NCBI GenBank assembly: GCA_964016885.1
Contig: OZ024743.1
Span: forward strand, 178,188,001-178,252,000
Direction: 5' to 3'
Origin: Eledone cirrhosa
Lineage: Eukaryota
DNA length: 64,000 nt
Shown here: piece by piece, positions 18 to 37,323 of the stretch
Numbering within the stretch: position 1 is the stretch's first letter
Layout of the letters: each line of letters opens with the position of its first letter
Made by a program: the position numbers and the translations under genes
The notes under the pieces: generated by a model
The model's database searches: none
Seen by the model: the letters and a program-made list of their open reading frames with translations, nothing else
What the model was told of the DNA's origin: nothing

Positions 18-1862
18 CATCATCATCATCATCATCATCATTTAACGTCCATGTTCCACGCTTTGCATGGGTTTGGACGGGAATTTTCCCACTTGAGGCA
101 AGAGTGGTTGTCTTGCTCGCATAGGACTGTCTGGCGTGTTTTCTACAGCTGGATGCCCTTCCTAACACCAACCACATTTACAGTGTGGGACTGGGAGGTT
201 TTTACCGTGTTGCCTACACGGCCACATTACAGCGTGGACTGTCTGTTTTTTTTATCGTGACACCTACACGATCTCATTTGTTTCGGCCTGGATGTTGTGG
301 CACCAACATAACTTTACATTGAAAGGGGCGGCGTGGATGGGGTGGGGGTAGTGGGACGGGGGTGTATTTTGTTAGAGATGCCTACTGACTGTAGTAGGTT
401 TTACTTTGTATTTAGGTAAGGCGGGTCTTCTCTATTACTGAGTACCGCCAAAGATCTCGGTCCAGTGACATTGTCTTGGAGAGGTGTAAAAGTGTGAGGT
501 CGGAATTTATCAGGTCGTCCCAGGTTCTTCTGGGTCTGCCTACTCCGTGGCTACCGTCTATCTTTATTGCCCTGCACTTTTTTATACAGCTGTCGTCTTT
601 CATGCGCATCACGTGACCATACCAACGTAGCCTTCTCTCGAGTAAACAACATCTGATCCCTCTTATTTCTAATTTTTCCCTTAGTTCGTTTATGCTTTGC
701 TGTTCACGTATATTACTATTACACAACCAGCGGAGCATGCAAGCTTCGTTCCTCTCTAGTCTGCGTATATCCTCTGCACACAATGCCCAGGTCTCACTGC
801 CATGCAACATTGCTGTTCGTATGCAGGCATCATACAGCCTGCCTTTCATTTTTAGGGAGAACCCTTTAGCGGCTAATAGTGGTATAAGCTCTCTGAACTT
901 TTTCCTTCCCGTTCTGACTCTAGCTACTGTACTTTCCGAGCACCCTCCCCCACTGCTGATTTTGTCACCCAGGTAACGGAAGCTGTCCACTATTTCTATA
1001 GAACCCTCTGCGCAATTGAAAGAGCTAGTATTTTGTTGGCACTTGCTGCTACTTATTGCACCAGAGCACTGGCCACATGTAAAATCTATGTTCTTAGTTA
1101 GCTTAACTGTGATCCCACTACATCTTTTATGCACCCATACTTTGCATTTGGGACATAAAATGGAGTTTCTACCTACGCCTTTCCTAAACACTGAGCAAGG
1201 CCATTTCCCGGAAGGAACCGGCGCCTTATTTTCTTTCCTACAAACTAGAACTTTAGTCTTAGCCAGGTTAATTTTAAGGCCTTTTGATTCTAGGCCGTGC
1301 TTCCATGTTTGGAATTTCTTCTCTAGCTCGGCCATTGATTCAGCTATGAGCGTTAGGTCATCTGGACAGCCGGTCTTGAACTCCATTGTTATAGCCTGAA
1401 GGGCAATAATAAATAGTAGGGGGCTAAGAACAGAGCCCTGATGAACACCAACTTTTACGCTAAACTCTTCACTATATTCATTGTTAATTCTAACCTTGCT
1501 GACTGTTTCTTTATACATGGCTTGTATAGCTCTCACAAGCCATTCATCAACACCTAGTTTTCTAAGAGCCCACCAGATAATGGAACGGGGGACTCTGTCG
1601 AAGGCCTTGTCCAAGTCGACAAAAGCTAAGTATAGGGGTTTACTTTTAGCTAGGTACTTCTCCTGTAGTTGTCGTACAATGAAAAGAGCGTCTGTGGTAC
1701 TTTTGCCTGACACAAACCCGAACTGCATTTCATCTAGATCAATTCTCTCTCTGATTAGTTGCGCTATTACTTTTTCCGTGACCTTCATGACCTGGTGGAT
1801 TAATTTAATGCCTCTATAGTTATTCCTATCTAGGGCGTCTCCTTTATCCTTGTAGCAGTTTA
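18..1862 (-). mobile_element. 5'-truncated RTE-clade LINE (RT region, 3' UTR, (GAT)n tail); catalytic Y(A/T)DD motif damaged by a small deletion
   Basis: ORF 412..1965 has NYRGIKL, QFGF, AFVDLDKAFD, GVHQGSVLSPLLF and RLRWYGHV. It reads GCP-DDL where other copies read GCPWELLY(T/A)DDL. (CAT)n at 18-40 is the tail. The first ~34 aa of the ORF are flanking non-LINE sequence. Confidence 0.93.
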
Positions 1863-1980
1863 TGCATATTAACAGCTTATGCATATTAACGGCTGAGCAG
1901 CCTAATTTCAATTCCAGTACTGCCAATACTGGAATTGAACTATCAAGACAGTTGAGGTATGTCATACATCAATTCATGTA

Positions 1981-2030
1981 TTTTATCTGATGAGGACGTA
2001 CTGAAAAAACAGTACAGTACCTTCGAAATA
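1981..2030 (+). ncRNA. Hammerhead-ribozyme-like core, interrupted by a Helitron-like insertion (mirror ~37081-37130, minus)
   Basis: CTGATGA (1987-1993), stem GGAcGTACTG / CAGTACcTTC, GAAA (2025-2028). The 3' part is replaced by TCTATATATATAAAACTG. Confidence 0.4.
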
Positions 2031-2690
2031 TCTATATATATAAAACTGAGGATGTCTGTCTGTGTGTGTGTGAGTTCGAATCCCTAAAACTCGAGAACCA
2101 CCCAATCGACTGTTTTCAAACTTTACACATGTAATATTTATGTTTCAGGGAGTGTTCTGAACAAAACAAATTTCAAATTTTCAATGCCTTAGGGACCGCA
2201 TCAGGCGATTTAGCAATCTCGCTCTATAATTCTGTGTTTCTCTTTTTAGGTAGATACATACATATAACGTCGCACCCTTATAATATCTGTCTGTATGTCT
2301 GACTGTCTGCATTACGTCAGCAATACTAAGCTTACCTAAGGCGGTTATATATTTCACGCAACACTAAAAATGAAAGCCGGTAACTATATATTAGTCAGTC
2401 TCTTCTTCATACCGTGAGGAAAGAAAATCCAACTTTTAGTGGAGCGAGTGAAACAAAGTCGACCCTGCTGCGATTCAAAAATCAGGTTTGCAGGTTATAT
2501 ACTTCACACAACACTAAAAATTAAAGCCGGTAAAGAAAATCATCGCTATAATAGCTTCAGTTTTTGTTTACTTACGTGCCTTTACGAGAACAAAAGTTAC
2601 TATTTTACCGTTTAGTATTGTAGAGAAGCACCAAACCGACTGTTTGCAAACTTTACACATGTAATACTTATGTTTCACGGAGTGTTCTGA
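2031..2690 (+). mobile_element. Non-autonomous Helitron-like element, 5' part (mirror ~36421-37080, minus)
   Basis: Begins A|TCTATATATATAAAACTGAGGATGTCTGTCTG and shares CCCTAAAACTCGAGAACCAC and CAAACTTTACACATGTAAT with the complete copy at 8653-9390. No CTAG end was found. Confidence 0.65.
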
Positions 2691-5617
2691 TAACAATAAT
2701 AGCAACACACACGACTATGATGATAGATATAATGACAACCCCTTAGAGAAACTATTTTTCAACCCAGCTGACAAAAGATATAAGATGGGTAATATCTACC
2801 CTACGAGGTTATCCTTTAATAAAAGAGTTTGCATGCCACAACAAATAGATGACGAGACAGAGGCACAGTTCACCATAGCTACAAATAAGATTAGACAAAT
2901 AGTAGACCGGTATACTAAGAGACTGAGCAGACCAGAGGCCCAACAACTTGGGAGGAAACCTGTAGAAGGCTGGGTTAGCCTCAGCAGGGCACAAGGGATG
3001 GTGAGTTAGTATGTCTACCCACGGATAAGTCCGGTAGGATTTCAATAGATAGCATGCCGAACTATATCAAGGCTATGCAGCCCCACATCACCAACACGAG
3101 CGAAATTGCACAACAAACACATGATGGGAGAGAGAAAATCCTCAACGCTCACATCATGATGTGGACTGACATCCTAAAGCCAAGCAGACGCACTGCCAAC
3201 AACTTCCAGGCGTCCAACAATGGCATACCACCCTTGTATGGGCTCCGCAAAGACCACAAGGCAGTTGACGACCCGACAACAGGACCACCAACAAGACCCG
3301 TGTGCGGAGCTAATATAGCTAACAACTACAGGATCTCCTACTTCCTCTCAATGGTTATACGCCCCATAATCAAGATGTCCCCGGATGTATGTGACAGTAC
3401 AGAGGACCTCCTCAGCAGAATCAGTGAGTGCAACAAAAACAAGAACCTATCCAACTGCATAATAGGCAGCATGGATGTGGTGTCACTGAACCCATCCATT
3501 AACATTGATTTTGCTGTGAAAAAATGTGTGGAGATGATCATTGAGAGTGAGGTGGAGTTCTGCGACGTCGACACAGGCGAACTGGGCCTCCTACTTAGAC
3601 TTACCTACGACACTGACTACCTAGATAGCCATGACCTTAGACGTTTCTGCCCTAGTAGACCCATAAGAGGTAGACCCCCCACCATAACCTCAATGGCAAA
3701 AAAGACTCACATGGGAAGGTGGATTGGGTGGACCAAAGCCATACGGACCCCCCAAAACAATGACCAGGTAAGAAAAATGGTCGCACATGCAATAGGGGCT
3801 AGTATCAAAACTACCCTAAAGGGCCACATATTTAAGTTCAACGAGATCTACACCCAAAATGAGGGAGCAGCCATTGGCGTCAGCATAGCTGGTGATGTTG
3901 CCAACCTTTTCATGGTATGGTGGGAAAGGAGACTTAAAGATCTCCTTAATGAGAGCTCCATAGACCTCATCATGTACTCTCGTTATGTAGACGATATCAA
4001 TATAGTTATAAGAACATCCCCACTAGAGAGCACTAACAAGTTTGATTTAGAACGTAGCACAATCGAAAGCATCCAGCAGATAGCTAATTCCATACACCAG
4101 AGTATAACTGTAACTATCGACTTCCCTTCCAAACACCCTAACAATAGACTACCTGTATTAGACACGGAACTCTGGATTAACACTATAGACGAGAGAGCCC
4201 AAATTCTCCACTCACACTATGCTAAACCCATGGCCTCCAAATACCTGATACTCAAAAACTCAGCAATGTCCAGTAGCGCTAAGTTTAGTATTCTGATCGC
4301 AGATTTGGTACGAGTGATGAAGAATGTGTCCCGCATGTGCGACCCAACAGAAATGGAAAGACACATCCAACACTTCATCAACCGCATGCAGTTCTCTGGC
4401 TACAACCAAAGAGACAGAGTCAGAGTATACGAAGGAGCCATGGAGAAGTATAAGACCCTCATAGAACTGGACATGAAAGGAATTTGCCCATTATACAGGA
4501 GCAAATCATGGAATAGCTTAGATAGGGCTAGACATAAGATAGGGAAAGCCACCTCATGGTACGACAACCAGAGATACCAGAGTGTCATGTTTGTGGACGC
4601 TACCCCTGAAGGGAAATTAGCTAACCAGTGTAGAAAGGCCCTGAGAAAGACCCACTTAAAGATTAAGGTGGTAGAAAAGCCAGGAACCACCATAAAATCC
4701 CTGATCAGCAAAACCTACTGTTTTAAGAAAACCCACTGTACTAATAGGAAATGTATCATATGTAAGGTAAACCCCCGGATAAACTGTAAAACTAGAAACG
4801 TAGTCTATAGCATAAGATGTACAGAGGGTACTTGCAGAAACATGACAACAACATACAGAGGTGAGACAGCTCGTAGCATAGGTGAAAGGATAGACCAACA
4901 CTGGGGGGAACTAAAAGGACGATAAAACGGGTCAGTACTATACGAACATGCCAGACAACAACACGACGGTAACATAGACAACATAGAAATTAGAATAATA
5001 TCTAAACATAGAAATGACCCAGCAGATAGGCAAATCAGAGAGGCCAGTGAAATAGAACTTAGAAGGCCAAGACTAAACAGAAAGAATGAATGGAATAACA
5101 ACAACACCAAAACAAACAACACTGACCTAAGAGAAGTATAAATAAATAAATAAATAGATAAATAAATAAATAAATACATACACAAGCACAATAACAACAA
5201 ACATATAAACACACACTAGTCACCCAATCACGAACAGACATCAAACAAAACACAATACACACACGTAAACGCATGCGCAAAGAAGACAAAATAAAATAAA
5301 CGAACAAGCAAATAAATAAATAAATATATAGACAGACTAAATAAAAATGGCGTAGACATACAATGCAACGGGAGGAAACAATAGCACCACTGACGATGTT
5401 GCAGATGTGCAACGAAAGATTTATGATAAACTATATATATGTGTTTGTGTCTATATTATATCTGTATTATTTTTGACCGTCGGTCAGTCAATGGCAACAT
5501 CGAGGACCGAATAAATTAGATTACCGATATAAAAGACACAGAAGCGAAAACCAACCAAACAGTGAGTGTGTTCTGTTATTAATTCTGGCAATATTACACA
5601 AATATGACCCTCCCCAA

Positions 5618-5618
<1 letters not shown>
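2691..5618 (+). mobile_element. Penelope-like retroelement (RT + GIY-YIG), 5'-truncated pseudogene
   Basis: TDKSG motif lies just upstream of ORF 3054, with a frameshift near 3000. ORF motifs: LYGLRKDHK, RPV, SMDVVSL, GAAIG, RYVDD, LPVLD, a Cys-rich linker and NVVY...YRGETARSIGERIDQH. After a premature TAA (4923-4925) the frame continues ...RQIREASEI...PRLNRKNEW to TAA 5139-5141. Confidence 0.92.
5386..5427 (+). ncRNA. Minimal type I hammerhead ribozyme motif in the 3' region of the Penelope-like element (mirror 33684-33725, minus)
   Basis: ACCA-CTGACGA-T-GTTGCA-gatg-TGCAAC-GAAA-GATT-TA-TGAT: conserved core, perfect 6-bp stem II, near-palindromic short stem III, one mismatch in stem I. Confidence 0.7.

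Positions 5619-5711
<93 letters not shown>
5619..5711. repeat. (TA)n microsatellite (about half as long in the mirror copy, ~33441-33492)
   Basis: Read directly. Confidence 0.95.
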
Positions 5712-5712
<1 letters not shown>

Positions 5713-5941
5713 CCCATTCAGTTTATTTGATACTTTAATATATCTAAAACGATAGTTTGCTATCGTCAACTCTAGAAAGAAAAATTACTTATTTTTACCT
5801 GTTGATAGGTAAAACTAAATAAATTCATGCACCATCTCACTACTACAGCCACTGTTTCTGTCACTGGATAGAATGAATAAAATCAATAGCAATATTTCTC
5901 TGTATCCACATAGATTTATAACGGTTGTCGTGGTTGTCGTC

Positions 5942-8636
5942 GTTATTCCTTATCCTTCCCAATGCCAGGTTATTCCTTATCCTTTCTTAGGCCAGGTTAT
6001 TCCTTATCCTTCCCAATGCCAGGTTATTTCTTATCCGTCCCTAGGCCAGGTTATTCCTTATCCTTCCCTAGACCAGGTTATTCCTTATCCTTCCCAATGT
6101 CAGGTTATTCCTTATCCTTCCCAATGCCAGGTTATTTCTCATCCGTCCCTAGGCCAGGTTATTCCTTACCCTACCCAATGCCAGGTTATTCCTTATCCTT
6201 CCCAATGCCAGGTTATTTCTTATCCGTCCCTAGGCCAGTTTATTTCTTATCCGTCCCCAGGTCAAGTTATTCCTTATCCTTCCCTAGACCAGTTATTCCT
6301 TATCCTTCCCAATGCCAAGATATTCCTTATCCTTCCCAATGCCAGGTTATTTATTATCCGTCCCTAGGCCAAATTATTCATTAGCCTGCCCTAGGCCAGG
6401 TTATTCTGTATCCTTCCCAATGCCAGGTTACTTTTTATTCTTCCCAATGCCAGGTTATTTCTTATCCGTCCCTAGACCAGGTTATTCCTTATCTTTGCCA
6501 ATGCCAGGTTATTCCTTATTCTTCCCAATGCCAGGTTATTTCTTAGCCGTCCCTAGGCCGGGTTATTCCTTATCCTTCCCAATGCCAGGATATTCCTTAT
6601 CCTCCCTTAGGCCAGGTTATTCCTTATCCTTCCCAATGCCAGGTTATTCCTTATCCTTCCCAAAGCCAGGTTATTTCTTATCCGTCCCTAGGCCAGGTTA
6701 TTCCTTATCCTTCCCAATGCCAGGTTATTCCTTATCCTTCCCCCCAATGCCAGGTTATTTCTTATCCGTCCCTAGGCCAGGTTATTCCTTATCCTTCCCA
6801 ACGCCAGATTATTTCTTATCCTTCCCTAGACCAGGTTATTCCTTATCCTTCCCAATGCCAGGTTATTCCTTATCCTTCCCAAAGCCAGGTTATTCCTTAT
6901 CCTTCCCAATGCCAGGTTATTCCTTATCCTTCCCACTGATAGGTTATTTCTTATCCGTCCCTCGGCCAGGTTATTCCGTATCCTTCCCAATGCCAGGTTA
7001 TTCCTTATCCTTCCCAATGCCAGGTTATTTCTTATCCGTCCCTAGGCCAGGTTATTCCTTATCCTTCCCAACGCCAGATTATTTCTTATCCTTCCCTATA
7101 CCAGGTTATTCCTTATCCTTCTCAATGCCAGGTTATTTATTATCCTTCCCTAGGCCAGGTTATTCCTTATCCTTCCCAATTCCAGGTTATTCCTTATCCT
7201 TTCACTGCTAGGTTATTTCTTATCCGTCCTTCGGCCAGGTTATTCCGTATCGTTCCCAATGCCAGTTTACTATTTATTCTTCCCAATGCCAGGTTATTTC
7301 TTATCCGTCCCTAGACCAGGTTATTCCTTATCCATCCCAATGCCAGGTTATTCCTTATTCTTCCCAATGCCAGGTTATTTCTTAGCCGTCCCTAGGTCAG
7401 GTTATTCTTTATCCTTCCCAATGCCAGGATATTCCTTATCCTCCCTTAGGCCAGGTTATTCCTTATCCTTCCCAATGCCAGGTTATTCCTTATCCTTCCC
7501 AATGCCAGGTTATTTCTTACCCGTCCCTAGGCCAGGTTATTCCTTATACTTCCCAATGCCAGGATATTCCTTATACTTTCTTAGGCCAGGTTATTCCTTA
7601 TCCTTCCCAATGCCAGGTTATTTCTTATCCGTCCCTAGGCTAGGTTATTCCTTATCCTTCCCAATGCCAAGTTATTTATTATCCTTCCCAATGCCAGGTT
7701 ATTTATTATCCTTCCCTAGGCCAGGTTATTCCTTATCCTTCCCAATGCCAGGTTATTCCTTATCCTTCCCAATGCCAGGTTATTTCTTATCCGTCCCTAG
7801 GCCAGGTTATTCCTTATCCTTCCCAACGCCAGATTATTTCTTATCCTTCCCTAGACCAGGTTATTCCTCATCCTTCCCAATGCCAGGTTATTTCTTATCC
7901 TTCCCTAGACCAGGTTATTCCTTATCCTTCCCAATGCCAGGTTATTTATTATCCTTCCCTAGGCCAGTTATTCCTTATCCTTCCCAATGCCAGGTCATTT
8001 CTTATCCTTCCCAATGCCAGGTTATTTCTTATCCGTCTCTAGTTCAAGTTATTCATTATCCTTCCCTAGACCAGGTTATTCCTTATCCTTCCCAATGCCA
8101 GGTTATTTCTTATCCTTCCTTAGGCCAGGTTATTCCTTATCCTTCCCAATGCCAGGTTATTTCTTATCCTTCCTTAGGCCAGGTTATTCCTTATCCTTCC
8201 CAATGCCAGGTTATTCCTTATCCTTCCCAATGCCAGGTTATTTCTTATCCGTCTCTAGTTCAAGTTATTCATTATCCTTCCCTAGACCAGGTTATTCCTT
8301 ATCCTTCCCAATGCCAGGTTATTTCTTATCCTTCCTTAGGCCAGGTTATTCCTTATCCTTCCCAATGCCAGGTTATTCCTTATCCTTCCCAATGCCAGGT
8401 TATTTATTATCCGTCCCTAGGTCAAGTTATTCCTTATCCTTCCCAATACCAGGTTATTCCTTATCCTTCCCAACGCCAGGTTATTTCTTATCCGTCCCTA
8501 GGCCAGGTTATTCCTTATCCTTCCCAATGCCAGGTTATTCCTTATTCTTCCCAATGCCAGGTTATTTCTTATTCTTCCTTAGGCCAGGTTATTCCTTATC
8601 ATTCCCAATGCCAGGTTATTTCCTATCCTTCCCTAG
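5942..8636. repeat. 27-bp tandem satellite, consensus CCAGGTTATTCCTTATCCTTCCCAATG, ~100 units with CCCAATG and CCCTAGG variants
   Basis: Direct periodicity. It produces the MPGYSLSFP and QVIPYPSQC repeat ORFs. Confidence 0.97.
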
Positions 8637-8652
8637 TAACTATATCTATATA

Positions 8653-9390
8653 CTAGCAGAATGGCCTGGCGTTGCTCGGGATTCTAATAATAGATTGGCA
8701 TGTTTATCCCTCCTTTCTGAAACGGTACAGAGAAGTACTGGATACCTCGGCCTGGGGATGGTGTCTACATTTTGTGCTTATGAAAAACATTTGTCGTAAA
8801 TTACCAGGGGTTTAACTTAATTGGGTGCCTGAGAGTAAAATGTAAGGAATAAACTCGTCAGTGATGCATATGATTTCCGAACCGTTGACTATGTAATCGC
8901 TGGCCTTGTTTGTTTATATTTTGTTTTTGTGTATGCAAAAATACCTGTACACGAATATATATATTAAAATAAGAGATTAAAGTTTAATCAAAGAATCGCT
9001 GCTTTCACCCTTAACGGCACCTTCTGAAACTAAAAAAAAATCAATCTGTGAACGCAGAAGTAAATATTTCTAAAAAACCTTACACACTATAGATATATAT
9101 ATACACACACACACTATATATATACATATACACACACACACACACATACAGAGATAGTGTCATAAAGTCGTAATGCAAACAGCCAGACATACAGACAGAT
9201 TATAGAGAGATCGCTAAACGGCGCCTAATGCGGTCCCCAGGGCATTGAAAATTTGGAATATTATTTGCTCAAAACACTCACATGACCATAAGTATTACAT
9301 GTGTAAAGTTTGAAAACAATCGGTTTGGTGGTTCTCGAGTTTTAGGGAGTCAGACAGACAGTCAGACATTCTCTGTTTTAGATATATAGA
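8653..9390 (-). mobile_element. Complete non-autonomous Helitron-like element, 738 bp
   Basis: 5' end A|TC. 3' end CCCGAGCAACGCCAGG (imperfect subterminal hairpin)-CCATTCTG-CTAG|T. Inserted between A and T with no TSD. Confidence 0.8.
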
Positions 9391-9446
9391 TAATATTGTG
9401 TGTGTGTGTTTAAGCGGAATTTTAGTAATAGGTATATGTATATATA

Positions 9447-9575
9447 TATATTATAAAGAGTCAGGACGCCGACAGCTGAGCTCTTGCCGTTTCAACAGCT
9501 GGTTCCAGTCTGCCTGGAACTAGCTGTTGAAACGGCAAGAGCTCAGCCATCGGGGTCCCAACTCTTTATAATATA
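9447..9575. repeat. ~130-bp fold-back palindrome, MITE-like (mirror ~27781-27909)
   Basis: Inner stem GCTGAGCTCTTGCCGTTTCAACAGCTGGTTCCAG-tctgc-CTGGAACTAGCTGTTGAAACGGCAAGAGCTCAGC, with outer pair TATATTATAAAGAGT / ACTCTTTATAATATA. Confidence 0.85.
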
Positions 9576-10257
9576 ACCATACTCTACTACCCCAAGTATC
9601 GAGTACTCTGTTGAGTAATGTCAAACCAGTTTCAAACTGAGTCCATCCTGATTTATATATATATACTATAATTGTTTCAACACACTGACGCGCATGTGTG
9701 TATGTAGATTGTACCCACAAGTGTAGTGAATGTTAGATTATCATCACCCAGTCTTTCATCAGTCACATAAACACATAGATGCTAATGAGCAAGCCCAATC
9801 TACCATTTATTTCTGGGATAAATAACATCAGTTTAATAACACCTCCAAAATTGTTTTCGCATACATTTTTGATAATGAATGGAAATTTTCGCAGTTTTAG
9901 ACTATGATTAAGATGATGAAATTTTAAAGAAAAATGTTTTTGTCATTAGCAGATTCATATCTAATTTATATAGGATGAAATTAGAGAAGCCTTTTCTCAG
10001 ACAATCTCATATATTGATGTATTAACATCATAAAAAGGTGGCGAAATGACAGAGTTGAGTTGTTTGAACGTCAGATAGAAGGCTTTGTGGTATTCATTCC
10101 GACTCTGTTTGCGTTCAAATTCGGTCGAGCTCAACTTTGTGCCTTTCATCATTTTGAGGTTGATAAAAAAAGTATAACTCTAATAATGGAGTCAATTCTT
10201 CCTCTTTATCTCTTTCTAACTCTCAATCTCTCTGGAAGAAATCTTCTGTACACATAT

Positions 10258-10500
10258 CCAGGGCCTAATTTAAGGCAGAGGAAATTGCACCAAGAGTCTT
10301 ATAGTGGGGGCCCCCACAAACGACAGCCGTAGCAATTTATTTGAGCCCTCAGATGGGCCTTTTAGTTTTAGGATGGTTAGAATTTTTTTTATTTAATATC
10401 TGTATGTATAACTTTTCAATTACTTGCGCCTAGCTAATTTTGATATGTAAATTGGGGGGTTTGCTGTGTATTCTAATTTTTTGTGTATAAGGGTCCCTAC
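10258..10500 (+). mobile_element. Degenerate DNA-transposon/MITE fragment with a CAGGGCC-type end (hAT-like); relative at ~50900-51137 in opposite orientation
   Basis: Shared GTAGCAATT.ATTTG.GCCCTCAG.TGGGC.TTTTAGTTTT.GGATGGTTAGAATTTTT block. Confidence 0.5.
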
Positions 10501-11187
10501 AAGTCACTTGGGATAAAAAAAAATCAGGTAAATGTGTTGTCATTATTAGTAAAAACTTGGAAAGGTTACTATCCAAGTAAAGTCATTGTCAAATATGGAT
10601 ATAGAGAATAGGAATAGGATGGACAAGTTCAGGGAGCTAATAATAAAGGAATTTTCTTTCCTGGAATAGTAGTAGATTGTATCATCATCACCATTTAGCG
10701 TCCATTTTTTCATGCTTGCATGGGTTAGACAGGTTGTCCACGCCGGGAAGAAAGTCTAGCCACAGATGGCCATGTCACACCTTGCTCTGACGAGGACTAT
10801 ATATATATATATATATATAATTTGCTCCGGACGTAGCACCCGTGTCTGAAAGAACCCGCAGAAGTAGAATCAGCCAGATCCATACAAGGACCATGACTCG
10901 AGCTACATGCCGGCGAAACATTTGTAACACAAAATAAACTAAGTCCAGATGCATCACTGATTTTTCGTTTCCTTTATAATATCTACACTCTACTCTGATG
11001 AATATCGAGTGCTAATTTTGGCATACCGCCTATGGAAGCACCATAGCTACCACTATACACAACTATATATATATATACTCAGAAGAGTGACACAGTTGAA
11101 GTCATGTGGAAGCCATTTCTATATTAAACATGATGTTTACACTCTACTAATGTATTAAGTACCTTACTAACTGTGTGTATATTTATA

Positions 11188-12234: not shown

Positions 12235-12381
12235 TATATAATAATAATAATGAGTATAACTGAAGTTGCAGCTGCGAGTAGCAGGTTCACAATTGATTTT
12301 TGGAGACTCTCACAAAGCACTCAATGAGAGAGTAATCAATGAATTAATCCTCAGAGTAATCAACATAAGTTAGGTAATAAT

Positions 12382-25121: not shown

Positions 25122-26168
25122 TCATCATCATCATCATCATCATCATCGTTTAACGTCCATATTCCACGCTTGCATGGGTTTGGACGGGGGTTTTCCCACT
25201 TGAGGCAAGAGTGGTTGTCTTGCTCGCATAGGACTGTCTGGCGGGTTTTCTACGGCTAGATGCCCTTCCTAACACCAACCACATTTACAGTGTGGGACTG
25301 GGAGGTTTTACCGTGTTGCCTACAAGGCCACATTACAGCGTGGACTGTGTGTTTTTTGTCGTGACACCTACACGACCTCATTTGTTTCGGCCTGGATGTT
25401 GTGACACCAACATAACTTTACAATGAAGGGGTGGTTTGGATGGGGTGGGGGTAGTGGGACGGGGTGTATTTTGTTAGAGGTGCCTACTGACTGTAGTAGG
25501 TTTCACTTTGTACTTAGGTAAGGTGGGTCTTCTCTATTACTGTGTAGCGGCAAAGCTCTCGGTCCAGTGACATTGTCTTGGAGAGGTGTAAGTGTGTGAG
25601 GTCGGAATTTATCAAGTCGTCCCAGGTTTTTCTGGGTCTGCCTACTCCGTGGCTACCGTCTATTTTTATTGCCCTGCACTTTTTTATACAGCTGTCGTCT
25701 TTTATCCGCATCACGTGACCATACCAACGTAGTCTTCTTTCGAGTAAACAACCTCTGATCCCTCTTATTTCTAATTTCTCCCTTAGTACGTTTATGCTTT
25801 GCCGTTCACGTATGTTACTATTACACATCCAGCGGAGCATGCAAGCTTCGTTTCTCTCCAATCTGCGTATATCCTCTGCACACAATGCCCAGGTCTCACT
25901 GCCATGTAACATTGCTGTTCGTATGCAGGCATCATACAGCCTGCCTTTCATTTTTAGAGAGAATCCTTTAGCGGCCAATAGTGGTATAAGCTCTCTGAAC
26001 TTTTTCCATCCCGTTCTGACCCTAGCTACTGTACTTTCAGAGCACCCTCCCCCACTGCTGATTTTATCACCCAGGTAACGGAAGCTGTCCACTATTTCTA
26101 TAGAACCATCTGTGCAATGGAATGAGTTAGTATTCTGTGGGCACTTGCTGCTACTTATTGCACCAGAA
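25122..26168 (-). mobile_element. Mirror RTE LINE 3' fragment
   Basis: ORF 25514..26092. Confidence 0.93.
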
Positions 26169-27965
26169 TATAAATATACACACAGTTAGTAAGGTACTTA
26201 ATACATTAGTAGAGTGTAAACATCATGTTTAATATAGAAATGGCTTCCACATGACTTCAACTGTGTCACTCTTCTGAGTATATATATATATAGTTGTGTA
26301 TAGTGGTAGCTATGGTGCTTCCATAGGCGGTATGCCAAAATTAGCACTCGATATTCATCAGAGTAGAGTGTAGATATTATAAAGGAAACGAAAAATCAGT
26401 GATGCATCTGGACTTAGTTTATTTTGTGTTACAAATGTTTCGCCGGCATGTAGCTCGAGTCATGGTCCTTGTATGGATCTGGCTGATTCTACTTCTGCGG
26501 GTTCTTTCAGACACGGGTGCTACGTCCGGAGCAAATTATATATATATATATATATATAGTCCTCGTCAGAGCAAGGTGTGACATGGCCATCTGTGGCTAG
26601 ACTTTCTTCCCGGCGTGGACAACCTGTCTAACCCATGCAAGCATGAAAAAATGGACGCTAAATGGTGATGATGATACAATCTACTACTATTCCAGGAAAG
26701 AAAATTCCTTTATTATTAGCTCCCTGAACTTGTCCATCCTATTCCTATTCTCTATATCCATATTTGACAATGACTTTACTTGGATAGTAACCTTTCCAAG
26801 TTTTTACTAATAATGACAACACATTTACCTGATTTTTTTTTATCCCAAGTGACTTGTAGGGACCCTTATACACAAAAAATTAGAATACACAGCAAACCCC
26901 CCAATTTACATATCAAAATTAGCTAGGCGCAAGTAATTGAAAAGTTATACATACAGATATTAAATAAAAAAAATTCTAACCATCCTAAAACTAAAAGGCC
27001 CATCTGAGGGCTCAAATAAATTGCTACGGCTGTCGTTTGTGGGGGCCCCCACTATAAGACTCTTGGTGCAATTTCCTCTGCCTTAAATTAGGCCCTGGAT
27101 ATGTGTACAGAAGATTTCTTCCAGAGAGATTGAGAGTTAGAAAGAGATAAAGAGGAAGAATTGACTCCATTATTAGAGTGATACTTTTTTTTTCAACCTC
27201 AAAATGATGAAAGGCACAAAGTTGAGCTCGACCGAATTTGAACGCAAACAGAGTCGGAATGAATACCACAAAGCCTTCTATCTGACGTTCAAACAACTCA
27301 ACTCTGTCATTTCGCCACCTTTTTATGATGTTAATACATCAATATATGAGATTGTCTGAGAAAAGGCTTCTCTAATTTCATCCTATATAAATTAGATATG
27401 AATCTGCTAATGACAAAAACATTTTTCTTTAAAATTTCATCATCTTAATCATAGTCTAAAACTGCGAAAATTTCCATTCATTATCAAAAATGTATGCGAA
27501 AACAATTTTGGAGGTGTTATTAAACTGATGTTATTTATCCCAGAAATAAATGGTAGATTGGGCTTGCTCATTAGCATCTATGTGTTTATGTGACTGATGA
27601 AAGACTGGGTGATGATAATCTAACATTCACTACACTTGTGGGTACAATCTACATACACACATGCGCGTCAGTGTGTTGAAACAATTATAGTATATATATA
27701 TAAATCAGGATGGACTCAGTTTGAAACTGGTTTGACATTACTCAACAGAGTACTCGATACTTGGGGTAGTAGAGTATGGTTATATTATAAAGAGTTGGGA
27801 CCCCGATGGCTGAGCTCTTGCCGTTTCAACAGCTAGTTCCAGGCAGACTGGAACCAGCTGTTGAAACGGCAAGAGCTCAGCTGTCGGCGTCCTGACTCTT
27901 TATAATATATATATATACATATACCTATTACTAAAATTCCGCTTAAACACACACACACAATATTA

Positions 27966-28703
27966 TCTATATATCTAAAACAGAGAATGTCTGACTGTCT
28001 GTCTGACTCCCTAAAACTCGAGAACCACCAAACCGATTGTTTTCAAACTTTACACATGTAATACTTATGGTCATGTGAGTGTTTTGAGCAAATAATATTC
28101 CAAATTTTCAATGCCCTGGGGACCGCATTAGGCGCCGTTTAGCGATCTCTCTATAATCTGTCTGTATGTCTGGCTGTTTGCATTACGACTTTATGACACT
28201 ATCTCTGTATGTGTGTGTGTGTGTGTATATGTATATATATAGTGTGTGTGTGTATATATATATCTATAGTGTGTAAGGTTTTTTAGAAATATTTACTTCT
28301 GCGTTCACAGATTGATTTTTTTTTAGTTTCAGAAGGTGCCGTTAAGGGTGAAAGCAGCGATTCTTTGATTAAACTTTAATCTCTTATTTTAATATATATA
28401 TTCGTGTACAGGTATTTTTGCATACACAAAAACAAAATATAAACAAACAAGGCCAGCGATTACATAGTCAACGGTTCGGAAATCATATGCATCACTGACG
28501 AGTTTATTCCTTACATTTTACTCTCAGGCACCCAATTAAGTTAAACCCCTGGTAATTTACGACAAATGTTTTTCATAAGCACAAAATGTAGACACCATCC
28601 CCAGGCCGAGGTATCCAGTACTTCTCTGTACCGTTTCAGAAAGGAGGGATAAACATGCCAATCTATTATTAGAATCCCGAGCAACACCAGGCCATTCTGC
28701 TAG
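27966..28703 (+). mobile_element. Mirror Helitron-like element; its 3' 180 bp are repeated at 29323-29502
   Basis: TC start at 27966, CTAG ends at 28703 and 29502 (offset 799). Confidence 0.8.
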
Positions 28704-28719
28704 TATATAGATATAGTTA

Positions 28720-31700
28720 CTAGGGAAGGATAGGAAATAACCTGGCATTGGGAATGATAAGGAATAACCTGGCCTAAGGAAGAATAAGAAATAACCTGGC
28801 ATTGGGAAGAATAAGGAATAACCTGGCATTGGGAAGGATAAGGAATAACCTGGCCTAGGGACGGATAAGAAATAACCTGGCGTTGGGAAGGATAAGGAAT
28901 AACCTGGTATTGGGAAGGATAAGGAATAACTTGACCTAGGGACGGATAATAAATAACCTGGCATTTGGGAAGGATAAGGAATAACCTGGCATTGGGAAGG
29001 ATAAGGAATAACCTGGTCTAGGGAAGGATAATGAATAACTTGAACTAGAGACGGATAAGAAATAACCTGGCATTGGGAAGGATAAGGAATAACCTGGCAT
29101 TGGGAAGCATAAGGAATAACCTGGCCTAAGGAAGGATAAGGAATAACTGGCCTAGGGAAGGATAATAAATAACCTGGCATTGGGAAGGATAAGGAATAAC
29201 CTGGTCTAGGGAAGGATAAGAAATAACCTGGCATTGGGAAGGATGAGGAATAACCTGGTCTAGGGAAGGATAAGAAATAATCTGGCGTTGGGAAGGATAA
29301 AGAATAACCTGGCCTAGGGACGTCAGGCACCCAATTAAGTTAAACCCCTGGTAATTTACGACAAATGTTTTTCATAAGCACAAAATGTAGACACCATCCC
29401 CAGGCCGAGGTATCCAGTACTTCTCTGTACCGTTTCAGAAAGGAGGGATAAACATGCCAATCTATTATTAGAATCCCGAGCAACGCCAGGCCATTCTGCT
29501 AGTATATAGATATAGTTACTAGGGAAGGATAGGAAATAACCTGGCATTGGGAATGATAAGGAATAACCTGGCCTAAGGAAGAATAAGAAATAACCTGGCA
29601 TTGGGAAGAATAAGGAATAACCTGGCATTGGGAAGGATAAGGAATAACCTGGCCTAGGGACGGATAAGAAATAACCTGGCGTTGGGAAGGATAAGGAATA
29701 ACCTGGTATTGGGAAGGATAAGGAATAACTTGACCTAGGGACGGATAATAAATAACCTGGCATTGGGAAGGATAAGGAATAACCTGGCATTGGGAAGGAT
29801 AAGGAATAACCTGGCCTAAGGAAGGATAAGAAATAACCTGGCATTGGGAAGGATAAGGAATAACCTGGTCTAGGGAAGGATAATGAATAACTTGAACTAG
29901 AGACGGATAAGAAATAACCTGGCATTGGGAAGGATAAGAAATGACCTGGCATTGGGAAGGATAAGGAATAACTGGCCTAGGGAAGGATAATAAATAACCT
30001 GGCATTGGGAAGGATAAGGAATAACCTGGTCTAGGGAAGGATAAGAAATAACCTGGCATTGGGAAGGATGAGGAATAACCTGGTCTAGGGAAGGATAAGA
30101 AATAATCTGGCGTTGGGAAGGATAAGGAATAACCTGGCCTAGGGACGGATAAGAAATAACCTGGCATTGGGAAGGATAAGAAATAACCTGGCATTGGGAA
30201 GGATAAGGAATAACCTGGCCTAGGGAAGGATAATAAATAACCTGGCATTGGGAAGGATAAGGAATAACCTGGCCTAAGGAAGTATAAGGAATATCCTGGC
30301 ATTGGGAAGTATAAGGAATAACCTGGCCTAGGGACGGGTAAGAAATAACCTGGCATTGGGAAGGATAAGGAATAACCTGGCATTGGGAAGGATAAGGAAT
30401 AACCTGGCCTAAGGGAGGATAAGGAATATCCTGGCATTGGGAAGGATAAAGAATAACCTGACCTAGGGACGGCTAAGAAATAACCTGGCATTGGGAAGAA
30501 TAAGGAATAACCTGGCATTGGGATGGATAAGGAATAACCTGGTCTAGGGACGGATAAGAAATAACCTGGCATTGGGAAGAATAAATAGTAAACTGGCATT
30601 GGGAACGATACGGAATAACCTGGCCGAAGGACGGATAAGAAATAACCTAGCAGTGAAAGGATAAGGAATAACCTGGCATTGGGAAGGATAAGGAATAACC
30701 TGGCCTAGGGAAGGATAATAAATAACCTGGCATTGAGAAGGATAAGGAATAACCTGGTATAGGGAAGGATAAGAAATAATCTGGCGTTGGGAAGGATAAG
30801 GAATAACCTGGCCTAGGGACGGATAAGAAATAACCTGGCATTGGGAAGGATAAGGAATAACCTGGCATTGGGAAGGATACGGAATAACCTGGCCGAGGGA
30901 CGGATAAGAAATAACCTATCAGTGGGAAGGATAAGGAATAACCTGGCATTGGGAAGGATAAGGAATAACCTGGCTTTGGGAAGGATAAGGAATAACCTGG
31001 CATTGGGAAGGATAAGGAATAACCTGGCCTAAGGAAGGATAAGAAATAACCTGGCATTGGGAAGGATAAGGAATAACCTGGTCTAGGGAAGGATAATGAA
31101 TAACTTGAACTAGAGACGGATAAGAAATAACCTGGCATTGGGAAGGATAAGAAATGACCTGGCATTGGGAAGGATAAGGAATAACTGGCCTAGGGAAGGA
31201 TAATAAATAACCTGGCATTGGGAAGGATAAGGAATAACCTGGTCTAGGGAAGGATAAGAAATAACCTGGCATTGGGAAGGATGAGGAATAACCTGGTCTA
31301 GGGAAGGATAAGAAATAATCTGGCGTTGGGAAGGATAAGGAATAACCTGGCCTAGGGACGGATAAGAAATAACCTGGCATTGGGAAGGATAAGGAATAAC
31401 CTGGCATTGGGAAGGATAAGGAATAACCTGGCCTAGGGAAGGATAATAAATAACCTGGCATTGGGAAGGATAATAAATAACTTGGCATTGGGAAGGATAA
31501 GGAATAACCTGGCCTAGGGACGGATAAGAAATAACCTGGCATTGGGAAGGATAAGGAATAACCTGGCCTAAGGAAGTATAAGGAATATCCTGGCATTGGG
31601 AAGTATAAGGAATAACCTGGCCTAGGGACGGGTAAGAAATAACCTGGCATTGGGAAGGATAAGGAATAACCTGGCATTGGGAAGGATAAGGAATAACCTG

Positions 31701-33211
31701 GCCTAAGGGAGGATAAGGAATATCCTGGCATTGGGAAGGATAAAGAATAACCTGACCTAGGGACGGCTAAGAAATAACCTGGCATTGGGAAGAATAAGGA
31801 ATAACCTGGCATTGGGATGGATAAGGAATAACCTGGTCTAGGGACGGATAAGAAATAACCTGGCATTGGGAAGAATAAATAGTAAACTGGCATTGGGAAC
31901 GATACGGAATAACCTGGCCGAAGGACGGATAAGAAATAACCTAGCAGTGAAAGGATAAGGAATAACCTGGCATTGGGAAGGATAAGGAATAACCTGGCCT
32001 AGGGAAGGATAATAAATAACCTGGCATTGAGAAGGATAAGGAATAACCTGGTATAGGGAAGGATAAGAAATAATCTGGCGTTGGGAAGGATAAGGAATAA
32101 CCTGGCCTAGGGACGGATAAGAAATAACCTGGCATTGGGAAGGATAAGGAATAACCTGGCATTGGGAAGGATACGGAATAACCTGGCCGAGGGACGGATA
32201 AGAAATAACCTATCAGTGGGAAGGATAAGGAATAACCTGGCATTGGGAAGGATAAGGAATAACCTGGCTTTGGGAAGGATAAGGAATAACCTGGCATTGG
32301 GAAGGATAAGGAATAACCTGGTCTAGGGAAGGATAAGAAATAATCTGGCGTTGGGAAGGATAAGGAATAACCTGGCCTAGGGACGGATAAGAAATGACCT
32401 GGCATTGGGGGGAAGGATAAGGAATAACCTGGCATTGGGAAGGATAAGGAATAACCTGGCCTAGGGACGGATAAGAAATAACCTGGCTTTGGGAAGGATA
32501 AGGAATAACCTGGCATTGGGAAGGATAAGGAATAACCTGGCCTAAGGGAGGATAAGGAATATCCTGGCATTGGGAAGGATAAGGAATAACCCGGCCTAGG
32601 GACGGCTAAGAAATAACCTGGCATTGGGAAGAATAAGGAATAACCTGGCATTGGCAAAGATAAGGAATAACCTGGTCTAGGGACGGATAAGAAATAACCT
32701 GGCATTGGGAAGAATAAAAAGTAACCTGGCATTGGGAAGGATACAGAATAACCTGGCCTAGGGCAGGCTAATGAATAATTTGGCCTAGGGACGGATAATA
32801 AATAACCTGGCATTGGGAAGGATAAGGAATATCTTGGCATTGGGAAGGATAAGGAATAACCTGGTCTAGGGAAGGATAAGGAATAACTTGACCTAGGGAC
32901 GGATAAGAAATAAACTGGCCTAGGGACGGATAAGAAATAACCTGGCATTGGGAAGGATAAGGAATAACCTGGCATTGGGTAGGGTAAGGAATAACCTGGC
33001 CTAGGGACGGATGAGAAATAACCTGGCATTGGGAAGGATAAGGAATAACCTGACATTGGGAAGGATAAGGAATAACCTGGTCTAGGGAAGGATAAGGAAT
33101 AACCTGGCCTAGGGACGGATAAGAAATAACCTGGCATTGGGAAGGATAAGGAATAACCTGGCCTAAGAAAGGATAAGGAATAACCTGGCATTGGGAAGGA
33201 TAAGGAATAAC
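28720..33211. repeat. Mirror 27-bp satellite array, expanded to ~4.5 kb and interrupted at 29323-29518 by a duplicated Helitron 3' end
   Basis: Reverse-complement units. Diagnostic variants recur at an offset of 1294 bp (30647 vs 31941). Confidence 0.97.
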
Positions 33212-33440
33212 GACGACAACCACGACAACCGTTATAAATCTATCTGGATACAGAGAAATATTGCTATTGATTTTATTCATTCTATCCAGTGACAGAAACA
33301 GTGGCTGTAGTAGTGAGATGGTGCATGAATTTATTTAGTTTTACCTGTCAACAGGTAAAAATAAGTAATTTTTCTTTCTAGAGTTGACGATAGCAAACTA
33401 TCGTTTTAGATATATTAAAGTATCAAATAAACTGAATGGG

Positions 33441-33492
<52 letters not shown>

Positions 33493-33493
<1 letters not shown>

Positions 33494-36420
33494 TTGGGGA
33501 GGGTTATATTTGTGTAATATTGCCAGAATTAATAACAGAACACACTCACTGTTTGGTTGGTTTTCGCTTCTGTGTCTTTTATATCGGTAATCTAATTTAT
33601 TCGGTCCTCGATGTTGCCATTGACTGACCGACGGTCAAAAATAATACAGATATAATATAGACACAAACACATATATATAGTTTATCATAAATCTTTCGTT
33701 GCACATCTGCAACATCGTCAGTGGTGCTATTGTTTCCTCCCGTTGCATTGTATGTCTACGCCATTTTTATTTAGTCTGTCTATATATTTATTTATTTATT
33801 TGCTTGTTCGTTTATTTTATTTTGTCTTCTTTGCGCATGCGTTTACGTGTGTGTATTGTGTTTTGTTTGATGTCTGTTCGTGATTGGGTGACTAGTGTGT
33901 GTTTATATGTTTGTTGTTATTGTGCTTGTGTATGTATTTATTTATTTATTTATCTATTTATTTATTTATTTATACTTCTCTTAGGTCAGTGTTGTTTGTT
34001 TTGGTGTTGTTGTTATTCCATTCATTCTTTCTGTTTAGTCTTGGCCTTCTAAGTTCTATTTCACTGGCCTCTCTGATTTGCCTATCTGTTGGGTCATTTC
34101 TATGTTTAGATATTATTCTAATTTCTATGTTGTCTATGTTACCGTCGTGTTGTTGTCTGGCATGTTCGTATAGTACTGACCCGTTTTATCGTCCTTTTAG
34201 TTCCCCCCAGTGTTGGTCTATCCTTTCACCTATGCTACGAGCTGTCTCATCTCTGTATGTTGTTGTCATGTTTCTGCAAGTACCCTCTGTACATCTTATG
34301 CTATAGACTACGTTTCTAGTTTTACAGTTTATCCGGGGGTTTACCTTACATATGATACATTTCCTATTAGTACAGTGGGTTTTCTTAAAACAGTAGGTTT
34401 TGCTGATCAGGGATTTTATGGTGGTTCCTGGCTTTTCTACCACCTTAATCTTTAAGTGGGTCTTTCTCAGGGCCTTTCTACACTGGTTAGCTAATTTCCC
34501 TTCAGGGGTAGCGTCCACAAACATGACACTCTGGTATCTCTGGTTGTCGTACCATGAGGTGGCTTTCCCTATCTTATGTCTAGCCCTATCTAAGCTATTC
34601 CATGATTTGCTCCTGTATAATGGGCAAATTCCTTTCATGTCCAGTTCTATGAGGGTCTTATACTTCTCCATGGCTCCTTCGTATACTCTGACTCTGTCTC
34701 TTTGGTTGTAGCCAGAGAACTGCATGCGGTTGATGAAGTGTTGGATGTGTCTTTCCATTTCTGTTGGGTCGCACATGCGGGACACATTCTTCATCACTCG
34801 TACCAAATCTGCGATCAGAATACTAAACTTAGCGCTACTGGACATTGCTGAGTTTTTGAGTATCAGGTATTTGGAGGCCATGGGTTTAGCATAGTGTGAG
34901 TGGAGAATTTGGGCTCTCTCGTCTATAGTGTTAATCCAGAGTTCCGTGTCTAATACAGGTAGTCTATTGTTAGGGTGTTTGGAAGGGAAGTCGATAGTTA
35001 CAGTTATACTCTGGTGTATGGAATTAGCTATCTGCTGGATGCTTTCGATTGTGCTACGTTCTAAATCAAACTTGTTAGTGCTCTCTAGTGGGGATGTTCT
35101 TATAACTATATTGATATCGTCTACATAACGAGAGTACATGATGAGGTCTATGGAGCTCTCATTAAGGAGATCTTTAAGTCTCCTTTCCCACCATACCATG
35201 AAAAGGTTGGCAACATCACCAGCTATGCTGACGCCAATGGCTGCTCCCTCATTTTGGGTGTAGATCTCGTTGAACTTAAATATGTGGCCCTTTAGGGTAG
35301 TTTTGATACTAGCCCCTATTGCATGTGCGACCATTTTTCTTACCTGGTCATTGTTTTGGGGGGTCCGTATGGCTTTGGTCCACCCAATCCACCTTCCCAT
35401 GTGAGTCTTTTTTGCCATTGAGGTTATGGTGGGGGGTCTACCTCTTATGGGTCTACTAGGGCAGAAACGTCTAAGGTCATGGCTATCTAGGTAGTCAGTG
35501 TCGTAGGTAAGTCTAAGTAGGAGGCCCAGTTCGCCTGTGTCGACGTCGCAGAACTCCACCTCACTCTCAATGATCATCTCCACACATTTTTTCACAGCAA
35601 AATCAATGTTAATGGATGGGTTCAGTGACACCACATCCATGCTGCCTATTATGCAGTTGGATAGGTTCTTGTTTTTGTTGCACTCACTGATTCTGCTGAG
35701 GAGGTCCTCTGTACTGTCACATACATCCGGGGACATCTTGATTATGGGGCGTATAACCATTGAGAGGAAGTAGGAGATCCTGTAGTTGTTAGCTATATTA
35801 GCTCCGCACACGGGTCTTGTTGGTGGTCCTGTTGTCGGGTCGTCAACTGCCTTGTGGTCTTTGCGGAGCCCATACAAGGGTGGTATGCCATTGTTGGACG
35901 CCTGGAAGTTGTTGGCAGTGCGTCTGCTTGGCTTTAGGATGTCAGTCCACATCATGATGTGAGCGTTGAGGATTTTCTCTCTCCCATCATGTGTTTGTTG
36001 TGCAATTTCGCTCGTGTTGGTGATGTGGGGCTGCATAGCCTTGATATAGTTCGGCATGCTATCTATTGACATCCTACCGGACTTATCCGTGGGTAGACAT
36101 ACTACCTCACCATCCCTTGTGCGCTGCTGAGGCTAACCCAGCCTTCTACAGGTTTCCTCCCAAGTTGTTGGGCCTCTGGTCTGCTCTGTCTCTTAGTATA
36201 CCGGTCTACTATTTGTCTAATCTTATTTGTAGCTATGGTGAACTGTGCCTCTGTCTCGTCATCTATTTGTTGTGGCATGCAAACTCTTTTATTAAAGGAT
36301 AACCTCGTAGGGTAGATATTACCCATCTTATATCTTTTGTCAGCTGGGTTGAAAAATAGTTTCTCTAAGGGGTTGTCATTATATCTATCATCATAGTCGT
36401 GTGTGTTGCTATTATTGTTA
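33493..36420 (-). mobile_element. Mirror copy of the Penelope-like element
   Basis: ORF 34186..36072 has the same premature stop plus a G>D change in the GIY-YIG YxGET motif (YRDET). Confidence 0.92.
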
Positions 36421-37323
36421 TCAGAACACTTCGTGAAACATAAGTATTACATGTGTAAAGTTTGCAAACAGTCGGTTTGGGGCTTCTCTACAATACTAAA
36501 CGGTAAAATAGTAACTTTTGTTCTCGTAAAGGCACGTAAGTAAACAAAAACTGAAGCTATTATAGCGATGATTTTCTTTACCGGCTTTAATTTTTAGTGT
36601 TGTGTGAAGTATATAACCTGCAAACCTGATTTTTGAATCGCAGCAGGGTCGACTTTGTTTCACTCGCTCCACTAAAAGTTGGATTTTCTTTCCTCACGGT
36701 ATGAAGAAGAGACTGACTAATATATAGTTACCGGCTTTCATTTTTAGTGTTGCGTGAAATATATAACCGCCTTAGGTAAGCTTAGTATTGCTGACGTAAT
36801 GCAGACAGTCAGACATACAGACAGATATTATAAGGGTGCGACGTTATATGTATGTATCTACCTAAAAAGAGAAACACAGAATTATAGAGCGAGATTGCTA
36901 AATCGCCTGATGCGGTCCCTAAGGCATTGAAAATTTGAAATTTGTTTTGTTCAGAACACTCCCTGAAACATAAATATTACATGTGTAAAGTTTGAAAACA
37001 GTCGATTGGGTGGTTCTCGAGTTTTAGGGATTCGAACTCACACACACACAGACAGACATCCTCAGTTTTATATATATAGATATTTCGAAGGTACTGTACT
37101 GTTTTTTCAGTACGTCCTCATCAGATAAAATACATGAATTGATGTATGACATACCTCAACTGTCTTGATAGTTCAATTCCAGTATTGGCAGTACTGGAAT
37201 TGAAATTAGGCTGCTCAGCCGTTAATATGCATAAGCTGTTAATATGCATAAACTGCTACAAGGATAAAGGAGACGCCCTAGATAGGAATAACTATAGAGG
37301 CATTAAATTAATCCACCAGGTCA

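Follow-up and report, generated by a model that had tools for sequence, protein, structure and literature searches.

Inverted duplications with spacers of sub-kilobase to kilobase length are already known from the human germline, from cancer and from yeast, and as a class they are ordinary. Here we describe a member of this class from an octopus, a palindrome of 35,536 bp (positions 1788-37323) in a 64-kb window of Eledone cirrhosa DNA (GenBank assembly GCA_964016885.1, contig OZ024743.1, positions 178,188,001 to 178,252,000 of the forward strand). All positions are those of this window, that is, the whole stretch analysed, which is repeat-rich animal DNA with 39% GC. The palindrome consists of a left arm, a 734-bp spacer and a right arm that is an inverted copy of the left one, inserted in a repeat resembling a short interspersed nuclear element (SINE).

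In cancer genomes, the local 2-jump that couples a loss with an inverted duplication has been reported in 472 instances (2020, PMC7025897). As in the cases described there, the Eledone palindrome has a copy-and-paste origin, here a probable one, and combines local copy gain (arm-to-spacer read depth of 1.85-2.17 in eight of eight contigs) with a nearby loss, here of about 17 nt of the SINE. The two inverted junctions that the cancer cases show on one chromosome would be present here too, the inner one appearing in contigs of two of two runs and the outer one in the assembly, backed by the continuity of the SINE. The Eledone locus differs from the cancer cases in lying in an invertebrate genome, in the small size of that loss and in the additional micro-switches at one junction, and it is apparently inherited, since its arms have diverged. 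In the fold-back inverted duplications of Hermetz et al. 2014 (PMC3907307), spacers with sequenced junctions measure 766-70,466 bp, with one table entry of 724 bp, and some junctions carry insertions. These share with the present locus a single-copy spacer, here at half the arm depth, and inverted microhomology at the junction between spacer and inversion. The cases set out in that report end in a telomere, a ring or a translocation and involve a megabase terminal deletion, whereas the Eledone copy returns to the same SINE at 37324.

The four-point template switch of type 3-1-2-4 (Loytynoja and Goldman 2017, PMC5453318) likewise yields an inverted repeat with an inverted spacer; unlike the events described in that account, which span some tens of bases and comprise just one switch pair, the Eledone locus would need at least four switches, with the return coming after two more hops and 16.5 kb of copying. 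The primate X and Y palindromes (Jackson et al. 2021, PMC8327919) resemble it in having arms above 8 kb that are more than 99% identical and spacers in a range (77 bp-358 kb) that includes the present one, and in both the rearrangement is concentrated at the centre. According to the same survey, 21 of 26 primate palindromes carry protein genes and many have been kept by conversion and selection for at least 25 million years, whereas the Eledone arms have yielded neither a host gene nor an evident conversion tract. A loose search of the octopus literature found no paper on such a palindrome, which is weak evidence of absence.

The SINE that received the copy is young and present in many copies, so that the lost target can be reconstructed and each switch read at base resolution. 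The locus thus offers a clean case in an animal in which repair has yet to be studied. Since no host gene was detected on which selection could act, it could also serve as a neutral control for whether long palindromes homogenise by geometry alone.

Layout of the palindrome and divergence of its arms

The arms and spacer are as follows.

1788-18309, plus strand: left arm, the original (donor) segment B, 16,522 bp, with older elements unbroken across both ends
18310-19043, no strand assigned: spacer, 734 bp, made up of 695 bp of original single-copy sequence and 39 bp of junction-made sequence
19044-37323, minus strand: right arm, the inserted inverted copy, 18,280 bp, lying between the two halves of one SINE

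Self-BLAST of the window returned two inverted blocks, 8034-18315 against 29322-19039 (99.2%) and 1788-8633 against 37323-30520 (98.1%), and these together with the exact limits agree with the palindrome of about 35.5 kb, with arms of 16.5 and 18.3 kb around a 734-bp spacer, that the original prediction had drawn from the letters. The order is A B C B-inverted D, with B as the left arm and D opening at 37324, and the structure is a real chromosomal inverted duplication.

The arms match over 16.5 kb, far beyond chance, and outside a 27-bp minisatellite array they are 99.8% identical. There they differ by 26 substitutions in 13,830 bp (0.188%, Poisson 95% interval 0.12-0.28%), equally divided into 13 transitions and 13 transversions, and by three indels, each of which lies in a simple repeat (42 bp of TA, one T and 4 bp of AT). 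The direction of change could be assigned for 19 of the 26 substitutions, ten being derived on the left and nine on the right; 15 were polarised by paralogous copies in the window (seven left, eight right) and four by 30 protein homologues of a Penelope-like open reading frame (ORF) in the arms (three left, one right). Private mutations on both arms, as the original prediction had claimed, are therefore present. So are the length differences noted there, namely the 42-bp TA indel and a 27-bp array whose right-arm version exceeds the left by 1,797 bp. In the reverse transcriptase (RT) ORF that both arms carry, the predicted total of about seven substitutions proved to be exactly seven (14651-16294 against 21063-22706), and all six of the proposed amino-acid polarities hold against the other window copies, with 14828, 15063, 15807 and 16082 derived on the left and 15288 and 15515 on the right; the ORF itself measures 1,644 bp from stop to stop, not 1632 bp. 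Six of the seven differences alter the amino acid, as expected for a dead copy.

An apparent lack of left-derived changes in the outer 11 kb was considered and dropped, as the asymmetry disappeared once the Penelope-like ORF had been polarised with the 30 homologues. At the start of that ORF (2924-3041), four arm differences fall within 118 bp, all of them transversions and three of them left-derived. This cluster is possibly a multi-nucleotide event or a short conversion from another copy.

Read evidence for a real duplication

Three runs of one sample (S1) contained 0.74-0.75 of the sampled words. For the region 18316-24300, the window was compared with two S1 runs as assembled contigs (X1 and X2) and with two restriction-site-associated DNA (RAD) runs, X21 and X22, from other samples under the same species label. 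The RAD tags start at an SphI site at 21398-21402 and give a depth of about 0-1 on unique arm and spacer bins, so that these runs carry no information on other individuals.

The spacer contig has a depth of 12.3 in X1 and 9.97 in X2, and the four unique arm contigs of each run have depths of 22.7-26.7 and 18.8-20.8, respectively. The arm-to-spacer ratio is thus 1.85-2.17 in all eight unique arm contigs, at similar GC content (0.27-0.34). Of the eight contigs listed for each run, three that lie in the RT repeat and carry three to four other letters were omitted, and summed bin depths were not taken as copy numbers. Mis-joined alleles predict a ratio of 1.0 and a heterozygous insertion 1.5. The inner junction is crossed by a contig in each run (19010-19959 in X1 and 19010-19958 in X2) that passes from hairpin stem to slip-back to arm, with at least 34 bases on the short side. 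At 20050 and 23125, the allele found in X1 is that of the left arm and the one in X2 that of the right arm.

These results bear on whether two alleles, or the halves of a fold-back chimera, were joined head to head by assembly or amplification. Amplified long-read libraries are described as yielding palindromic chimeras (PMC6218980), the arm divergence of 0.19% is comparable in size to the single difference that separates the window from the run contigs over about 460 bp of spacer, and the outer junction is supported by the assembly only. Against this, alleles predict arm and spacer at 1:1, the new inner junction recurs in the contigs of both runs, a chimera would continue into inverted A and not into the matching half of the same SINE, and the arm differences are substitutions, with indels confined to simple repeats. 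We regard an artefact of this kind as hardly credible. The haplotype form of it is excluded by the depth together with the split SINE, and not by the private mutations alone: these exclude a fold-back with identical arms, as originally argued, but two mis-joined alleles would also carry derived changes on both sides. The prediction of a real, recent duplication and not a read fold-back is accordingly upheld as to its reality by the 2:1 depth, the inner junction in two of two runs and the split SINE; that it is recent is likely but unproven by the 0.19%. The half depth on each arm that was expected of an allelic artefact is contradicted by arm contigs at about twice the spacer depth (two runs, one sample), while, of the junction crossings proposed as a further check, the inner one was found in contigs from 19010 onward in both runs, the outer junction coming from the assembly only.

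Both run contigs differ from the window at 18795, the one difference in the approximately 460 bp of spacer compared. This suggests a second spacer allele and, with the 2:1 depth, a duplication present on both homologues; the alternative is an assembly error at 18795.

The right arm as an inverted copy inserted in a SINE

Which arm is the copy can be read from the elements that the arm ends cut or leave whole. An RT ORF on the minus strand (412-1968) is continuous across 1788, where the left arm has its outer limit, and at this point its codons agree with those of another copy. A degenerate SINE-like repeat (18279-18347) is continuous across 18309, the inner end. Since these older elements are unbroken at both ends, A-B-C is the old order. 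The right arm, by comparison, is flanked by the halves of one target repeat.

18953-19004, plus strand: 5' half of the target SINE-like repeat, 82% identical to the intact copy at 39059-39009
37324-37446, plus strand: 3' half of the target SINE-like repeat, 83-84% identical over 119-123 columns to 12480-12371 and 38982-38877

Intact copies with both halves in sequence lie at 39059-38877, 42320-42536 and 42552-42736. Beyond 19004, 19 and 18 contigs, together with some 19,600 reads in each RAD run, follow the next 25 nt of the family and then enter the sequence with which D begins at 37324. With three to seven copies in 45.7 kb, the probability that D would by chance begin no more than 25 nt from the matching position is about 0.002-0.004. 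Compared with four intact or partial copies and the family reads, the insertion site has lost approximately 17 nt of the SINE, and it shows no target-site duplication. Because the SINE halves flank the right arm and A-B-C is the old order, the right arm is an inverted copy of B inserted in the SINE. Many copies of the family are at least 95% identical to the target. The insertion is therefore younger than a SINE that is itself young, an age bound that is independent of arm divergence.

An origin by transposition or retroposition, including an inverted pseudo-long-terminal-repeat form of a Penelope element, was rejected: the arm ends cut through the RT ORF and the SINE, and the site shows loss with no target-site duplication. 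The Penelope-like ORF moreover lies 1.2 kb inside the arm and not at its end, which speaks against the inverted pseudo-long-terminal-repeat form. Homologous recombination between SINEs was also discarded as a cause, as the copies at 18279-18347 and at the target have the same orientation and their recombination could produce no inversion.

Some further repeats surround the site. An intact copy of the same SINE (38877-39059) lies inverted 1,431 bp beyond the target copy, to which it is 82-83% identical, and before the duplication the two formed an inverted pair. The inner arm end at 18309 falls in another copy of this SINE, about 15 nt from the position at which D resumes, which may be chance. 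A pair of 178-bp direct repeats (84%; 18470-18645 and 37856-38032), a dispersed repeat by read depth, flanks the insertion site.

Junction sequences and proposed origin

The inner junction carries a hairpin followed by a short re-copied tract, and a run of guanines lies near the outer one.

18980-19037, no strand assigned: perfect hairpin with a 25-bp stem (18980-19004 and 19013-19037) and an inverted 8-nt loop (19005-19012)
19036-19045, plus strand: 10-bp re-copy of 19023-19032 after a 13-nt slip-back, its first two bases shared with the stem and its last two with the arm
37355-37370, plus strand: run of 16 G (G16), 31 bp from the outer junction and inside the 3' half of the SINE

The segment 19005-19037 is the reverse complement of 18980-19004 and eight further bases. 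Aligned with the intact copies, at least six of the eight loop bases are SINE-native sequence that is now absent in forward orientation. The hairpin folds as DNA at -32.6 kcal/mol (z -8.8, 0 of 200 shuffles) and is the only non-simple stem in the window of at least 15 bp with a loop of at most 20 nt. At 19004 the family carries an inverted repeat of 3 bp that encloses a 6-nt loop. The end of the re-copy matches the reverse complement of 18309-18316 at seven of eight positions with one bulge, 2 bp of which is exact microhomology, and the step from there to the arm skips 670 bp of spacer. The outer join shows no microhomology unless a 9-nt slip over a 6-bp repeat that belongs to the RT element is allowed for, which gives 2 bp.

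Based on these junctions, we think it somewhat more probable than otherwise that the palindrome arose in a single event, in which a replication or repair polymerase that had stalled or met a break switched templates several times in series. The steps are described for the top strand; an equivalent account can be read in mirror image from the bottom strand. Synthesis would have halted at 19004 in the SINE, at the 3-bp inverted repeat of the family. The 3' end would have moved to the opposite strand 6-9 nt ahead and copied back 33 nt, giving the 25-bp stem and the inverted loop; a slip-back of 13 nt and the copying of 8 nt would have followed. A jump of about 670 nt to 18309 on 2 bp (7/8 imperfect) of microhomology would then have allowed 16.5 kb to be copied, from 18309 to 1788, before a return to the SINE about 25 nt past the stop point on 0-2 bp of microhomology. 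Afterwards the two arms would have drifted neutrally and independently, with about ten changes polarised to each, as simple repeats changed in length. The inversion of the loop calls for a template other than the nascent strand, as in the 3-1-2-4 type described in PMC5453318, and for breaks in yeast, templated inverted tracts of 5-34 bp with capture of the far end by 0-5 bp of microhomology have been reported (PMC11724301).

Several points weigh against this account. The intact ancestral site is reconstructed from the SINE family and the allele itself was not seen, two loop bases mismatch the family consensus, and the microhomology of the first switch is 1-3 bp depending on the lost bases. One-step and two-step origins of the 670-bp asymmetry yield the same sequence. 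The outer junction at 37323/37324 is seen in the assembly only, backed by the continuity of the SINE; no contig bridges 18982-19010, where the SINE breaks the graph, and none of the listed pieces covers the stretch from end to end. X1 and X2 come from one sample, which may be the assembly's own; the depth rests on one spacer contig per run, with neither a flanking single-copy control nor a recorded library type, and long reads through the palindrome centre could be under-represented. As to polarity, 14737 is left-derived by a distant window copy and right-derived by family-wide reads (at place 22620), and the call at 17972 relies on a weak low-complexity match.

The same sequence could also be reached in two steps. 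A first switch or a break fold-back would have made a near-perfect palindrome with 17.2-kb arms (1788-19004) around an 8-nt loop, and a later deletion would have removed about 670 bp from the right arm only, with end joining and a short templated insertion closing the gap. The hairpin would be the surviving tip of that palindrome. The stem is indeed perfect and centred on the SINE break, and the slip-back repeat with 2 bp of microhomology at the 670-bp skip resembles polymerase theta-type end joining. Microhomology-mediated replication restart, however, would likewise be expected to give short tracts of low processivity before one long tract. Stabilisation by central deletion has been reported for long inverted repeats in mammals, which are described as becoming stable only after a deletion has made the centre asymmetric (PMC1803023). 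Yet the unstable intermediate would have had to survive one division or more, and the model requires a further event; the lack of any alternative centre in the two runs of S1 says little. We judge a two-step origin unlikely, though well worth keeping in view.

Stated in full, and more tentatively still, the hairpin could be a fossil, the last trace of the tip of a once-perfect palindrome (arms of 17.2 kb) that was born in the SINE beside G16, tamed by the 670-bp deletion and spread to both homologues, and that then drifted without conversion. If this were true, the locus would be a wild, gene-free germline record of the birth and revision of a palindrome, testable in a natural population. G16 is the only run of eight or more G in the window and is absent from the four other aligned SINE copies; with hindsight, it may be regarded as a candidate fork-stalling site and possible G-quadruplex trigger, or as a later expansion.

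It is also conceivable that the SINE broke, that a fold-back or sister fusion followed, and that a second break at 1788 was rejoined to the retained D. In that case the inverted arm would consist of sister DNA that had been replicated, not of a newly primed tract of 16.5 kb. Such break-fusion-break cycles explain human inverted duplications with single-copy spacers and 2-8 bp of inverted microhomology in the cases reported (PMC3907307, PMC10622511), and the 0-2 bp at the outer join would agree with them. The human cases nevertheless end in terminal deletion, telomere capture or translocation, whereas here the far end returns about 25 nt from the first break, so that D would have had to wait unrepaired; and a simple top-strand fold-back keeps the loop native, where the present one is inverted. 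The sequence alone may be unable to separate this course from template switching, but on balance we consider it improbable.

Age, stability and conversion

The spacing of the substitutions is compatible with a uniform distribution (Kolmogorov-Smirnov p=0.48), the largest gap being 1,820 bp (P=0.57), and the inner part (15 in 9,676 bp) does not differ significantly from the outer part (11 in 4,154 bp; Fisher p=0.20). With even spacing and balanced derived changes, no long recent conversion tract is evident, although the power is low. Primate X palindromes at least 25 million years old and maintained by conversion are reported to have less than 0.2% arm divergence (PMC8327919); since such a value can persist for that long under conversion, arm divergence alone does not date the event. 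The duplication is likely recent, but its 0.19% is no proof of this.

Part of that 0.19% might have been allelic at birth, if B was copied from the homologous chromosome or if the duplication later recombined with a non-duplicated allele, in which case it would be younger than the arm divergence suggests. The spacer difference of allelic level would fit, as would the four substitutions in 118 bp at 2924-3041, three of them left-derived. The first three switches, however, use templates less than 700 bp from the break, which points to copying in cis, and the changes are otherwise evenly spread. Involvement of the homologue thus seems to us very improbable.

The instability and proneness to arm-to-arm conversion that the original prediction ascribed to long inverted repeats with short spacers are not shown for this locus, where the substitution spacing is compatible with uniform, and the appeal to instability was overstated for 734 bp, a length within published ranges: 77 bp-358 kb among palindromes, with human X palindromes down to 77 bp (PMC8327919), and 724/766 bp-70 kb for fold-back duplications (PMC3907307). 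Two 6-kb Ty arms with a 280-bp spacer have been described as stable in wild-type yeast (PMC7999016). With 734 bp between the arms, hairpins or cruciforms probably do not form routinely, and this would account for the persistence of the palindrome.

Contents of the arms and other repeats in the window

The arms contain a Penelope-like ORF, two non-long-terminal-repeat (non-LTR) RT fragments, several SINE-like fragments, microsatellites and a minisatellite.

2979-4925 (mirror 34186-36132), plus strand: Penelope-like RT/GIY-YIG ORF fragment, a passenger, identified by protein-cluster matches and homologues
14651-16294 (mirror 21063-22706), plus strand: non-LTR RT ORF fragment with a PHD finger, a passenger (Pfam RVT_1 E=4.9e-31, PHD E=2.5e-6)
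5942-8633, plus strand: 27-bp minisatellite of the left arm, 99.7 units
28723-33211, minus strand: 27-bp minisatellite of the right arm, 1,797 bp longer than the left

The Penelope-like ORF matches atlas clusters bearing RVT_1, HTH_animal and GIY-YIG at 0.92-0.95, and in Pfam it matches RVT_1 only, weakly (E=0.003); its closest homologue, at 68% identity, is named Octopus vulgaris. The second element is given here as a non-LTR RT, "RTE" having been the label of the original prediction. Its PHD finger stands directly after the RT domain, and its copies in the window include 412-1968 and 59129-61279. If transcribed, the arms would give long double-stranded RNA against two retroelement families.

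The excess of the right minisatellite consists of blocks of 566, 431 and 799 bp and 1 bp, with six substitutions besides. The 799-bp block (28686-29484) is a tandem duplication of the minisatellite edge and about 200 bp of unique flank, a second rearrangement after or during the main one. A 288-bp direct repeat within the arm (12731-13017 and 13358-13645, 95%) is older than the palindrome, because both arms carry it.

No Pfam family was found in any of 75 frames of at least 48 amino acids outside transposable elements (79 listed, with four TA-repeat frames omitted), no Rfam match for a structured RNA in the arms, and no candidate host exon in a crude exon scan, although short or unknown exons remain possible. 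The arms are thus free of any host gene detectable by these means, with the same proviso, and the inverted duplication is likely without function.

Outside the palindrome, the GC-rich stretch at 62300-64000 appears by eye to hold a different RT, of the long interspersed nuclear element type, frameshifted on the minus strand; two frames scanned there gave no Pfam match. A 40-bp minisatellite of 28.9 units (39093-40236) adjoins the inverted SINE copy, and a 33-bp minisatellite of 138 units (51356-55875) shows a strong strand skew, with a GC skew of about 0.77.

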